This document shows positions 52,221 through 55,551 of a stretch of 64,000 nt of DNA, piece after piece (position 1 is the first letter of the stretch; each line of letters begins with the position of its first letter). The position numbers and the translations under genes were made by a program. The notes under the pieces are model-generated. The model saw nothing but the letters and a program-made list of their open reading frames with translations. It had not been told where the DNA came from and made no database searches. The stretch comes from Actinomycetales bacterium (GTDB lineage Bacteria > Actinomycetota > Actinomycetes > S36-B12 > UBA5976): contig JAIXQF010000004.1 of assembly GCA_027484085.1 (NCBI GenBank), positions 170,035 to 234,034 on the forward strand, in the 5' to 3' direction.

Positions 52221-53210
52221 TTGAGCACAACAACTTCCGCGGTCGAGATAGCTCGATCCGCACTTCTTGATTCAATTCCAGCCGATCACGTTGGCAAGGC
52301 TTTGGATTCTGTTGTTGAGCCAACTGAAGATTCTTCAGTGACCATCATTAGCTACACGTTTGAATGCACTTCACCTGGTTACCCAGGTTGGTATTGGGAA
52401 GTAAGCCTGGTCGAAGTTTCTGGTCAAGCAGAACTTTCTGTCAGCGAAGTAAACCTATTGCCAGGCTCAGCTGCGTTGGTTCCTGAGCAATGGAAGCCTT
52501 GGGCTGATCGCGTTGAAGCCGGTGACTTAGGCGTTGGTGATTTATTACCAGTATCTGAAAACGACGAACGTCTAACTGCAGGCTTTACTGCACTTGGCGA
52601 TCTGGATGATCTATCCGATGACCTCGCACCTTTGCATCCTGTCCAATGGGAACTTGGCTTGGGTCGCGAACAAGTACTTAGCACTATTGGTTTAGAACGA
52701 GCAGTCGATCGTTGGTTTGAAAAACAAAATGGTCCACGTTCAGCCATGGCAAAGTCTGCTCCAGCGCAGTGTGGCTCATGCGGTTTCTTAGTTGCAATCG
52801 GTGGCTCAATTGGTCAGGTATTCGGTGTTTGTGGAAATGAATTTGGCGCTGCTGATGGTCAAGTAGTTGCAACTACATTTGGTTGCGGTGCACATTCATC
52901 GGTTCGCGTTGCACAATCCACGCCAATCCCAGTTGTCGATTTAGTAATTGATGATCGTGCGGACGAGCAAAGTGATTCAAGCGATCTACCGGATTATGTT
53001 GCTGACCCTGTCGTAATTGATGCAGATGAAACCGAAGCAATTGATTCCGACGAAGCTGAAGATCGCACAGAAGTTCTTGCTTCCGAATTTGCTATGAAAG
53101 AAGCAGTTGAGGCAATCGAAGCTGCCACTGAAATTCTTGAAATGGAAAATTTAGATTCCGATGAGTCTGCAACTGAAATCGCAGATTTCTTCGGCGATGA
53201 CGATAAGTAG
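52221..53210 (+). CDS. DUF3027 family protein with acidic tail
   Basis: GYPGWYW, LLPG, W.PW.DR, CGSCGF...GVCGN...GCGAHS. Confidence 0.85.
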   Translation: MSTTTSAVEIARSALLDSIPADHVGKALDSVVEPTEDSSVTIISYTFECTSPGYPGWYWEVSLVEVSGQAELSVSEVNLLPGSAALVPEQWKPWADRVEAGDLGVGDLLPVSENDERLTAGFTALGDLDDLSDDLAPLHPVQWELGLGREQVLSTIGLERAVDRWFEKQNGPRSAMAKSAPAQCGSCGFLVAIGGSIGQVFGVCGNEFGAADGQVVATTFGCGAHSSVRVAQSTPIPVVDLVIDDRADEQSDSSDLPDYVADPVVIDADETEAIDSDEAEDRTEVLASEFAMKEAVEAIEAATEILEMENLDSDESATEIADFFGDDDK

Positions 53211-53214
53211 CTAG

Positions 53215-53574
53215 CTAGCAGCATTTCAGGTGCAGTACCCGCGCAATTGCGTGTATCGATTCCGGAATTACTTTGTAGTAAACGTTCATGCCACGACGTT
53301 CCTTTTGCACAATTCCTGCCAATTCAAGTCTCTTTAGGTGGTGACTAACTGTTGGCTCCGACAGATTCAGAACGGGAGCCAGGTCACATGTGCAAGCTTC
53401 CCGATCATCTTGGTCCAATAGAAAACTGACCAACTGAAGCCTTGCCGGATCCGCCAAGGCCTTTAACCGAAGGGCAAGATCGTTGGCATCGGCCAGACTG
53501 ATCTGCGCAGTTGAGCCAAGTGGAGGGCAACAGATGAGGTCGAGTACTTCGAGGATGGGTGGCGATTTAGGCAT
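53215..53574 (-). CDS. ArsR/SmtB metalloregulator
   Basis: CCPP, KALADPARL, ACTCDL, LSEPTVSHHL, C-terminal CC. Confidence 0.92.
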   Translation of the reverse strand: MPKSPPILEVLDLICCPPLGSTAQISLADANDLALRLKALADPARLQLVSFLLDQDDREACTCDLAPVLNLSEPTVSHHLKRLELAGIVQKERRGMNVYYKVIPESIHAIARVLHLKCC

Positions 53575-53593
53575 AAAAAAGAGTATGCCACAT

Positions 53594-53646
53594 ATTTGAC
53601 ATCTATCTAATAAGTGACATATTTAGTTATTAGATACTCATCTAAT
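53594..53646. promoter_or_regulatory. Two probable ArsR operators overlapping divergent promoters
   Basis: Perfect ATTAGAT-ACTC-ATCTAAT (53629-53646) and imperfect ATTTGAC-ATCT-ATCTAAT (53594-53611), which overlaps TTGACA at 53596. Confidence 0.75.
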
Positions 53647-53663
53647 TAGGAAAGGAGCTGAAA

Positions 53664-53738
53664 ATGACATTCTGCTGTGAAGCCGAAGCGGTAGAAGCGC
53701 TCGAAGTATGTTGCTCAACGGAAACTTCTTGTTGCTAA
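53664..53738 (+). CDS. 24-aa Cys-pair peptide MTFCCEAEAVEALEVCCSTETSCC (candidate metal/metalloid chelator)
   Basis: Strong RBS AAAGGAG at 53651-53657; three CC pairs; divergent from ArsR; below the ORF-track cutoff. Confidence 0.75.
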   Translation: MTFCCEAEAVEALEVCCSTETSCC

Positions 53739-53758
53739 ATACCTAGCACTAAGAACTA

Positions 53759-54052
53759 CTAGCTGGTTGATTCCTTGGCTTGCTCGATCCGAGCAGCACG
53801 TCGCTTGGTGTAACGCATTCCCAGCAAGCCAAGGATGATCCCGGCTACGCCAATTGCGATCCAATTGTCTCTACCAGCAGCCTCAAGTTGGTTGCGTAGC
53901 AAAACCATAATCAAGGTGGCTACTGACCATATAACTGTGCCCACTGTGACTGCTGTGATTCCGTTTACTTCAAGTGGCTTGAGTTCCTGCTTGGTTGCTG
54001 GGGAACCAGGGAATTGATCGGACTCGTTCAGAGAGTCTGCACTATTACTCAC
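53759..54052 (-). CDS. DUF2530-like small membrane protein
   Basis: PL...VGTVIW, two TM helices, basic tail; usual neighbour of the NCS2 permease. Confidence 0.75.
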   Translation of the reverse strand: MSNSADSLNESDQFPGSPATKQELKPLEVNGITAVTVGTVIWSVATLIMVLLRNQLEAAGRDNWIAIGVAGIILGLLGMRYTKRRAARIEQAKESTS

Positions 54053-54075
54053 AAGTAGGACACTAGCGTGTCGTT

Positions 54076-55551
54076 ATGGAAACCACTACAAAAACACAGG
54101 GCACATCGGCATGGGATCGCTATTTCCACATGACCGAGCGTGGCTCGAATCTAGGAACTGAAGTACGCGGTGGCATTGTCACCTTCGTAACGATGGCTTA
54201 CATCGTCGTACTTAACCCACTTATCGTCGGTACCGCCAAGGACATCAATGGGAATTTCCCAGGTGGTGGCCAGGACATCGGGGAAGCAATTTCGTTGGTA
54301 GCTGCAGCTACTGCGCTTGTTGCAGGCCTGATGACAATCTTCATGGGCGTGTATGGACGTTTCCCTATCGCTATTGCAGCCGGCCTAGGTCTTAACGGAT
54401 TCTTGGCTTTCGGCCTTGCTCCGTACATGACCTGGCCACAAGCATTTGGTCTAGTCATCATCGAAGGCTTCATCGTCTTGCTTTTGGTTCTAACCGGATT
54501 CCGCACTGCGGTATTCCATGCAGTGCCAGATGAACTGAAGTATTCAATCGGTGCGGGTATTGGTTTATTCATCGCGCTAATCGGATTAGTTGATGCCGGT
54601 ATTGCTCGACCAGGTGTGCCACTGATTACTTTTGGTGTATTTGGCGAGTTGGCTGGTTGGCCAATCTTTACGTTCGTGTTCGGTCTTCTCCTCATGGTCG
54701 TATTGGTTGCCCTTCGCAAGCGCGCTGCAATTTTGATTGGCTTACTAGTTACAACTGCACTTGCAGTTTTGCTAGAAGCCACTCAAAAGATTGGTGGTTC
54801 AAATACCGATCCATCACTGCCTGGTCTAGAAAACCCAGTCGGTTGGAATCTAAACATTCCAGCAATCCCAGAGACTCTTATCGGTTTTGTTGATCCAACA
54901 CCGTTGTTTGATATCGACATCTTCGGGGCTTTCTCATCATTTGGTGTGTTGGCAGCTGGCCTTGCAGTGTTCTCACTGTTGCTTAGCGACTTCTTCGACA
55001 CCATCGGAACCGTTACTGGGTTGGCAAAAGAAGCTGACCTAATGACTGCTGATGGCGAAGTAGAACACCTAGGTGAAATCTTGGCTGTTGACTCGTTGGC
55101 AGCAGTTGCAGGTGGTTTTGCCGGAACATCGTCAAACACCGCTTACATCGAATCTGCTTCAGGTATCGGCGATGGCGCTCGCACTGGTATTGCCAGCTTG
55201 GTAACTGGAACCCTGTTCTTGTTAGCGATGTTTATTGCACCGCTGACAAAGATTGTTCCTTACGAAGCAGCAGCTCCAGCGTTGGTGATTGTGGGCTTCT
55301 TAATGATGACTCAGATTCGCCACATCCCATTTGATGATTATGCAATTGCGATTCCATCGTTCTTGACCATCATCTTGATGCCATTCACCTACTCGATCAC
55401 AAACGGTATTGGTGCAGGCATGGTTTCCTATGTTGCAATCAAGATCGCACAAGGCAAGTCAAAAGAAGTTTCAGGTTTGTTGTGGATTATCTCTGCAGCA
55501 TTCGTGATCTACTTTGCAGTTCACCCATTAAAGGCACTGCTCGGCTTGTAA
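54076..55551 (+). CDS. NCS2 (AzgA-type) purine permease
   Basis: EVRGGIVTFVTMAYI, GLGLN, DFFDTIGT, YIESASGI, GARTG. Confidence 0.93.
   Translation: METTTKTQGTSAWDRYFHMTERGSNLGTEVRGGIVTFVTMAYIVVLNPLIVGTAKDINGNFPGGGQDIGEAISLVAAATALVAGLMTIFMGVYGRFPIAIAAGLGLNGFLAFGLAPYMTWPQAFGLVIIEGFIVLLLVLTGFRTAVFHAVPDELKYSIGAGIGLFIALIGLVDAGIARPGVPLITFGVFGELAGWPIFTFVFGLLLMVVLVALRKRAAILIGLLVTTALAVLLEATQKIGGSNTDPSLPGLENPVGWNLNIPAIPETLIGFVDPTPLFDIDIFGAFSSFGVLAAGLAVFSLLLSDFFDTIGTVTGLAKEADLMTADGEVEHLGEILAVDSLAAVAGGFAGTSSNTAYIESASGIGDGARTGIASLVTGTLFLLAMFIAPLTKIVPYEAAAPALVIVGFLMMTQIRHIPFDDYAIAIPSFLTIILMPFTYSITNGIGAGMVSYVAIKIAQGKSKEVSGLLWIISAAFVIYFAVHPLKALLGL

Follow-up and report, generated by a model that had tools for sequence, protein, structure and literature searches.

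A conserved 24-residue Cys-Cys peptide opposite a cysteine-based ArsR repressor: a candidate minimal cassette against arsenite or a similar soft metal(loid) in an actinobacterium

In Synechococcus, the ArsR/SmtB-family repressor SmtB is encoded divergently from a metallothionein gene and senses Zn at a His/Asp/Glu site, and its partner SmtA is a protein of 56 residues folded around a Zn4 cluster that includes His. Short, acidic, cysteine-rich binders of As(III), Cd or Cu, with thiolates as ligands, are also found among the phytochelatins, the synthetic (Glu-Cys)n peptides and the 25-26-residue copper metallothionein of Neurospora, none of which is known to be under ArsR control in bacteria. 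Here we analyze a stretch of 64,000 nucleotides (the window; Actinomycetales bacterium, GenBank assembly GCA_027484085.1, contig JAIXQF010000004.1, positions 170,035 to 234,034 of the forward strand) from a genome of 1.8 Mb that is 98% complete. At 53215..53738 of the window an arsR gene stands opposite a 24-codon open reading frame (ORF), hereafter the micro-ORF. We consider it moderately probable that the two genes make up a self-contained stress cassette, in which a cysteine-based ArsR would control an acidic peptide of 24 residues that traps arsenite or a similar soft metal(loid).

The locus resembles SmtB-SmtA in its divergent repressor, its small thiol-rich product, the operator repeats in the common intergenic region and, in the mechanism proposed below, a loop closed by sequestration of the inducer; SmtB itself (1r1t) is among the PDB matches of the ArsR. 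Unlike SmtA, the peptide has 24 residues, contains no His, arranges its cysteines as vicinal pairs (CC) and has no Pfam metallothionein match, and unlike SmtB the ArsR is all-cysteine and falls in what appears to be an arsenic-linked clade. The last two pairs of the peptide have the CC-x5-CC spacing of ArsD (Cys112-113/119-120 in the numbering used in PMC12607644), and vicinal Cys pairs in an ars setting are common to both; ArsDs encoded beside the ArsRs of this clade end in ...CCGGxGCC (10/10). In contrast, ArsD is a thioredoxin-fold protein of ~120 residues with Cys12-13-18 that works with the ArsA ATPase, a fold that the peptide lacks, and the ArsD model PF06953 did not match the peptide. 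The Rv2640c-CadI pair of mycobacteria (NF041413/NF041414) supplies the closest regulator family, with a full-length match and the same divergent layout, and the ArsI/CadI-like partners of relatives bear CC tails; here, however, the partner is a 24-residue peptide instead of a VOC-fold enzyme, and no ArsI/CadI gene was found in the genome. Phytochelatins are made by an enzyme rather than encoded and are like the peptide in composition only, as is the Neurospora protein, which represents the size class of the smallest known metallothionein. Finally, the mycobacterial polycysteine short ORFs, as described in 10.1101/834739, are likewise micro-ORFs that went unannotated in actinobacteria and have Cys codons in a row, but they are leaderless, lie 5' of cysteine-metabolism operons and act by attenuation, whereas the micro-ORF is led by a Shine-Dalgarno (SD) sequence, linked to a metalloregulator and followed by no downstream gene. 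An ArsR-controlled Cys micropeptide was not described in the literature within reach of our searches, supplements and most subscription journals lying beyond it, and the words 'peptide' and 'metallothionein' are absent from a 2018 review of prokaryotic ars genes. The logic is shared with SmtB-SmtA, and what differs is the size of 24 residues, the chemistry of vicinal pairs, the arsenic-type Cys sensor and the stand-alone cassette.

The features of the locus are as follows.

53211..53758, no strand: cassette of ~545 bp holding arsR and the micro-ORF, between convergent DUF3027 and DUF2530 genes, delimited by comparison with an empty site
53215..53574, minus strand: arsR, a 119-residue repressor of the ArsR/SmtB family (ORF listing; Pfam HTH_5 and NCBIfam)
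53575..53663: control region of 89 nt common to the divergent arsR and micro-ORF, with a similar layout in relatives
53594..53611: imperfect dyad ATTTGAC-ATCT-ATCTAAT, over the -35, with 2 mismatches relative to the perfect dyad
53596..53623, plus strand: promoter-like site of the micro-ORF, TTGACA (53596-53601), 16 nt, CATATT (53618-23), with TG in front (10/12 matches)
53629..53646: perfect 7-4-7 dyad ATTAGAT-ACTC-ATCTAAT, between the -10 and the SD, a candidate operator
53650..53657, plus strand: SD GAAAGGAG, 6 nt 5' of the ATG, with GGAAAGGAG invariant in 6/6 loci
53664..53738, plus strand: 24-codon micro-ORF with ATG start and TAA stop, peptide MTFCCEAEAVEALEVCCSTETSCC (ORF listing and conservation)
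53759..54052, minus strand: DUF2530 gene (Pfam), convergent, 20 nt past the micro-ORF stop

The peptide holds its six cysteines as three pairs within 24 residues, together with five Glu and no basic residue; Phe3 is its sole aromatic. The pattern of conservation indicates that the ORF is a gene under purifying selection, neither a chance reading frame nor a decaying one, because it is kept in congeners and in metagenomes with a coding pattern of substitution. It lies at the same place in all five congeneric genomes with an arsR orthologue (arsR 78-82% identical), and a degenerate-pattern scan of metagenome contigs gave ten matches, nine of them with the order arsR / ORF / DUF2530; the tenth sits in unrelated high-GC DNA and was discarded as false. 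Over an alignment of six species, the mean pairwise ratio of nonsynonymous to synonymous substitution rates (dN/dS) was 0.114 for the micro-ORF and 0.066 for arsR, and variable sites of the micro-ORF were distributed 6/2/12 over codon positions 1/2/3. The sole length change in this alignment is the in-frame insertion of a GAA codon (L003), and none of the 15 copies has lost its SD, start or stop. No variation was seen in the core FCCEAEAVEALE, in four further Cys or in the stop; five of the six cysteines never change, and the sixth, C17, is Asp in one lineage. The residues EAEAVEALE are also invariant, while third codon positions vary. The sequence-only reading that drew attention to this locus had taken the unannotated ORF for a true gene, and these comparisons bear it out.

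Synonymous divergence (dS) of the micro-ORF was 0.52 against 1.17 for arsR in the same genomes, under half, which could be small-sample noise or an added constraint at the nucleotide level. Covariance models of Rfam 15 gave no match over 53300-54000 at E up to 1, and the predicted RNA fold of the micro-ORF region is ordinary (z -0.31). An exact look-up of seven such small ORFs in a collection of 15 billion proteins found none of them (0/7), so gene callers never reported these seven. Nine RNA runs matched small shares of a 3.3-kb stretch, and the contigs of the four freshwater sets examined cover DUF3027, DUF2530 and a permease, with none over 53229-53676. A reading of the peptide as the precursor of a ribosomally synthesized and post-translationally modified peptide was rejected, there being no maturation enzyme in or beside the cassette.

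The control region is conserved along with the gene. The arms of the perfect dyad are invariant among congeners while its 4-nt spacer varies, and at up to one mismatch the dyad has a single match in the 1.8-Mb genome. The imperfect dyad is its direct-repeat partner, 35 nt apart, and is kept in 5/5 congeners; the -35 of the promoter-like site is invariant in 6/6 aligned loci. That site is the only one found in 53100-54150, and shuffled sequences average 1.1, so that the promoter match by itself is no proof. The promoter of arsR would lie back to back with it (TGGCATACT, 6 nt, ATG), with a leaderless mRNA expected, and the arsR start at MPK is kept in 9/9 orthologues. The ORF, its ribosome-binding site, the TTGACA promoter and both dyads that the sequence-only reading had picked out are thus all in place, one dyad being perfect and one imperfect. 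It had also described the next gene as convergent, leaving the peptide the only gene of its transcript; DUF2530 does lie on the minus strand, 20 nt after the ORF stop, the micro-ORF is the sole gene opposite arsR, and the one genomic match to the perfect dyad falls in its promoter region. By that uniqueness, the micro-ORF is the only visible output of the ArsR in the genome.

The repressor passes the cut-offs of the ArsR/SmtB class, with 55.9 bits against Pfam HTH_5 (PF01022; E 3.8e-15, cut-off 22) and 81.1 bits against NCBIfam NF033788 (cut-off 55). It is the sole strong HTH_5 gene in the genome (57.1 bits), the next five scoring 22-27. Its best NCBIfam model is NF041413, the Rv2640c family (142.9 bits, residues 1-119 against 1-118 of 118). 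We place it in an arsenic-linked clade because this family is the closest and because ars genes lie near the arsR of relatives. The cysteines noted earlier are all present, as C15C16, C61-T-C63 and the terminal C118C119. The N-terminal pair aligned with Cys15-16 of the Corynebacterium glutamicum ArsR (6j0e) in the PDB alignment; the column of Cys55 in that protein is Asp here, with C61/C63 4-6 residues further on, and these might replace the C. glutamicum-type Cys55', which the partner subunit contributes. The terminal pair falls on the CC in 6j05, the ArsR of A. ferrooxidans, whose site (Cys95, 96, 102) is incomplete here, the protein ending at the terminal CC with no third Cys. The R773-type site, defined as Cys32/34/37 in helix alpha-3 in PMC12607644, is a CxCxxC triad that is likewise incomplete: C61 and C63 are present and the third position is Ala66.

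Among 81 clade ArsRs (L036-L115 plus that of the window), C15 and C16 are each retained in 72 and C61 and C63 each in 77, and position 66 is Ala in 78. An exact Cys-Cys C-terminus occurs in 42 of the 81, as it does in the micro-peptides and in ArsD.

The same control region in relatives leads to arsenic genes. It consists of a TTGACAT..GTCAA or ATCTAA element and a TTAGAT-N4-(A/G)TCTAA dyad just 5' of the SD. In two metagenome-assembled genomes of Nanopelagicales (L077, L081) it is followed by ArsI-like, ArsC and Acr3 genes; in L033 by a 53-codon Cys-rich ORF starting M-T-x-C-C, like the micro-ORF, and then an ArsP_1 permease; in L034 by ArsP_1 alone; in L035, L085 and L091 by ArsP_1 with a thioredoxin-like domain; and in L069 and L070 by a 16-codon ORF and then ArsC. 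At least one ars-type Pfam family lies near the arsR homologue in 16/19 loci of the same order, and its lack in the other three may be explained by crude ORF picking in high-GC DNA. Clade arsRs as a whole neighbor genes for MIP, ArsC of the LMWPc type, Acr3, ArsD/ArsA, ArsI-like and ArsP_1 proteins, with an ArsI/CadI-type partner in L077, L081, L011, L014 and L018, and no metal P-type ATPase or cation diffusion facilitator (CDF) gene was found beside them in the Pfam-scanned loci. We favor arsenic because of these neighbors and because CC modules recur on ArsD, ArsI-like, DUF2703 and ArsR proteins.

Several proteins of these loci have cysteine-rich parts. The DUF2703 protein of one ars cluster (L034:905-1390) has a low-complexity tail with two CC pairs, and the ArsI-like proteins of L011, L014, L015 and L018 have similar tails. 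In L021 (1390-1839), an ArsR of another family from the same order, upstream of ArsC and Acr3, has an N-terminal extension with four CC pairs and a repeated CCP-A-x-EAV, which looks like the micro-peptide motif fused to a sensor. The Cys-rich ORFs of 53 and 63 codons in L033 (1939-2100) and L085 (2225-2416) were uncalled, have strong SDs and stand directly 5' of genes for ArsP_1-type permeases; the 15-billion-protein collection has neither of them, and the 53-residue product had no homologue among proteins of 29-93 residues, the length range searched. Elsewhere, a DnaB helicase gene with a LAGLIDADG-domain intein adjoins an arsR homologue (L016:1-1476).

The same architecture may instead serve a different soft metal (Cd, Pb, Hg, Cu(I) or Zn), with the peptide as a micro-metallothionein for it; we regard this as unlikely. 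The nearest named family is that of Rv2640c, whose partner family bears the name ArsI/CadI 'heavy metal resistance', and no characterized As(III) triad is complete in the ArsR. CadC-type proteins (Lmo1102, 1u2w/3f72) are among its top PDB matches, and an N-terminal Cys with a CxC in alpha-3 is like the CadC layout. Vicinal CC pairs are used to handle Hg(II) as well. Against another metal, the neighbors of clade arsRs are overwhelmingly arsenic genes, without the P-type ATPase or CDF partners sought in the scanned loci.

The sequence-only reading had held that the usual ars genes were absent here, which stands for the Acr3 and ArsB pumps and not wholly for ArsC. Acr3, ArsB, glutaredoxin-type ArsC, ArsP_1 and ArsI/CadI (NF041414) were not found in the genome, ArsM and ArsH gave hits below cut-off only, and Acr3 was found in 0/41 genomes of the genus. 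An ArsC-like gene of the low-molecular-weight-phosphatase type does exist on another contig (G000 C2:797-1204, L032), at the contig end, adjoining a WhiB-like gene in back-to-back orientation; it scores best against arsenate reductase models, below the cut-off of each. A MIP channel gene adjoining pheT (G000 C2:281967-282635; L130:1291-1959, minus strand) encodes a protein 48-55% identical to MIPs inside the arsR-linked operons of relatives and far under the cut-offs for aquaporin Z and aquaglyceroporins, and may have been retained, apart from any ars operon, as a channel for arsenite. Arsenate reduction and passive exit of arsenite may thus exist, unregulated by ArsR, with the cassette as the only inducible element.

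The mechanism we propose follows the SmtB-SmtA logic. Without inducer, an ArsR dimer would sit on the two dyads, covering the -35 of the peptide promoter with its start region and probably also the back-to-back, probably leaderless promoter of arsR. A thiol-seeking metal(loid), most likely arsenite or methylarsenite, would bind the cysteines of ArsR and release it from the DNA, and the peptide would then be translated from its strong ribosome-binding site. Its thiolates would hold the toxicant, since six thiols could accommodate either two As(III) in S3 sites or three methylarsenite in S2 sites, and the peptide would buffer the poison, or carry it for hand-over, until it exits, for instance via the ars-type MIP, or growth dilutes it. 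As free inducer drops, ArsR would rebind. Such bacteria have a volume of ~0.03 cubic micrometers per cell, at which 1 micromolar amounts to about 18 molecules, so a handful of peptides could matter; a few dozen would buffer a micromolar toxicant in an ultramicrobacterial cell. Repression, the identity of the inducer, translation and metal binding are all inferred here from sequence.

Several points weigh against this proposal. The ArsR falls below the curated cut-off of NF041413 (142.9 against 155 bits) and lacks the full Cys set of any characterized As(III) site, so that Cd, Hg, Cu or another inducer could be the true one. A stoichiometric trap without a dedicated pump would be an unusual defense. 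Searches with the peptide, which have little power at 24 residues, gave no match in Pfam or NCBIfam (E up to 1) or among PDB sequences (E up to 10), so that its function, metal binding included, rests on composition and context. The RNA contigs, those of relatives at low depth, are uninformative either way on transcription of arsR or the micro-ORF. A terminator scan showed no terminator-like site between the micro-ORF and DUF2530, and its transcript may extend antisense into that gene. Lastly, the cassette is present in 6/41 genomes of the genus only and so is dispensable.

A second alternative keeps the arsenic and changes the role. The peptide could be a carrier or modulator that passes As(III) through CC arms either to ArsR, tuning the switch, or toward an exit like the MIP, in the manner proposed for the ArsD tail or MerA-type C-terminal CC arms, or else a sacrificial thiol or redox buffer. 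In its favor, repressor and peptide both end in CC, as do 42/81 clade ArsRs, and ArsD, ArsI-like and DUF2703 proteins carry CC tails that cannot serve them as bulk sinks; micro-ORFs of other taxa lie within operons of permease, reductase or channel genes, and the genome retains its ars-type MIP, 48-55% identical to the operon-linked ones. But the genus cassette has no partner gene and the perfect dyad occurs nowhere else, which makes a sink easier to justify, and we hold a carrier to be quite improbable.

Still less credible is an ORF that acts as translated sequence or RNA, either as a Cys-codon stalling sensor of thiol depletion or as an ArsR-gated antisense against DUF2530. The mycobacterial polycysteine short ORFs are cysteine-responsive attenuators (10.1101/834739), and DUF2530 lies 20 nt off with no terminator-like site between. 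Here, however, attenuation would have no downstream gene to act on, the micro-ORF has an SD where the mycobacterial ones are leaderless, and micro-ORFs of other taxa stand at operon ends or between genes. Invariance of the non-Cys EAEAVEALE over variable third positions argues for selection on the peptide, Rfam and fold statistics gave no sign of a structured RNA, and adjacency to DUF2530 represents one insertion site, not independent evidence.

The possibility that the ORF is a functionless leftover, retained beside arsR when an operon was lost and derived either from the 5' part of a longer, Cys-rich first gene or from the end of an ars gene encoding a CC tail, also has very little room. Relatives do have longer operons after this control region, with the 53-codon Cys-rich ORF and ArsP_1 permease in the sister genus and ArsI-ArsC-Acr3 in the nearest Nanopelagicales, and the cassette is patchy; this much of the deletion-remnant scenario that the sequence-only reading had named as its own refutation was found, but the ORF itself is selected and not decaying (dN/dS 0.11 over six species, signals intact in 15 copies, a sole indel that is in frame), and a second, unrelated lineage (L071, L080) has a lone micro-ORF opposite arsR.

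The proposed trap would have arrived as a unit. In two genomes (G022, G012) the site is empty and reads DUF3027 stop, 4 nt, DUF2530 stop, so the ~545 bp represent a clean insertion. An arsR orthologue was found in 6/41 genus genomes, 3/5 genomes of one sister genus and 0/47 in six other genera of the family, many of these genomes being incomplete. Compared across the window and G001, G011, G022, G012, G026, G027 and G030, the DUF3027/DUF2530 junction (53208-53762) is variable in the genus: empty, with the cassette alone (here) or with 4-6 kb of other genes. In other carriers, arsR has convergent genes on its left, with no link to arsenic. In L102 a DDE transposase gene (680-2020) follows an arsR / micro-ORF pair, hinting that such pairs travel with insertion sequences.

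The peptide is not unique: CC-ended micro-ORFs also occur in the ars clusters of other actinobacteria, and the lone-gene layout was seen twice again. We surveyed the best 80 of 129 loci of clade ArsR relatives, with 2.5-kb flanks. Besides five genus copies, eight non-genus loci hold SD-led acidic micro-ORFs of 12-20 codons ending in CC, as follows.

L054, between an oxidoreductase and a MIP gene: MGCCDDCTCTDEDCC
L058, after an ArsI-like gene: MDCCDEITNSCETGCC
L069 and L070: MDCCDDCSDCCCEGCC
L071: MSCCEGCCESCEDCC
L080: MSCCEDCCDNCQEDCC
L091, after a permease-Trx3 gene: MDGCCDCGVACC
L102: MDDCCDDTCTTEDCGTSCC

In L071 and L080 the micro-ORF is the sole gene opposite arsR and the neighbor is convergent, as in the window; the two ORFs differ at synonymous sites and by a single in-frame codon. 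The 53- and 63-codon Cys-rich ORFs before permease genes appear in the survey as L042 (= L033) and L085. A strict tail criterion (last 12 residues ending in CC, with at least 4 Cys and no R/K/H/W/Y/F), outside which L058 and L090 fall, gave 22 hits in 22/80 loci (389 kb) and 0 in each of 20 shuffles; on the 1.8-Mb genome it gave 5, the micro-ORF of the window among them. The 22 comprise 11 micro-ORFs, 10 ArsD C-termini (10/10 confirmed by Pfam) and 1 unclassified, and in a neighbor-joining tree without support values the micro-ORF loci are scattered over several ArsR clades.

More tentatively, CC-ended poly-Cys micro-ORFs of 12-25 codons could be an overlooked and widespread class of ars-cluster genes, gene-encoded analogues of phytochelatins, of which the peptide and ArsR described here would form a complete, mobile, pump-free inducible defense; we find this possible, and short of probable. 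The cassette may also be tuned to methylarsenite, which needs two thiols, as each vicinal pair and the terminal CC of ArsR offer. This idea is attractive and draws on a methylarsenite-selective Shewanella ArsR that reportedly has a two-Cys C-terminal site.

If the peptide binds arsenite or methylarsenite, its gene would be of a new kind in arsenic resistance, encoding a ribosomally made thiol trap far below annotation size. Sequestration, as known from plant phytochelatins and, for zinc, from cyanobacterial SmtA, would then extend to bacterial metalloid defense, and one common chemical module would account for the CC tails that recur on ArsD, ArsI-like and ArsR proteins. The 545-bp cassette of sensor and peptide would be close to the smallest complete unit for inducible detoxification known so far, and a ready part for arsenic biosensing or bio-accumulation. 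It would also give a hint on how abundant, streamlined freshwater actinobacteria that lack Acr3, as all 41 genomes of this genus appear to do, handle arsenic.

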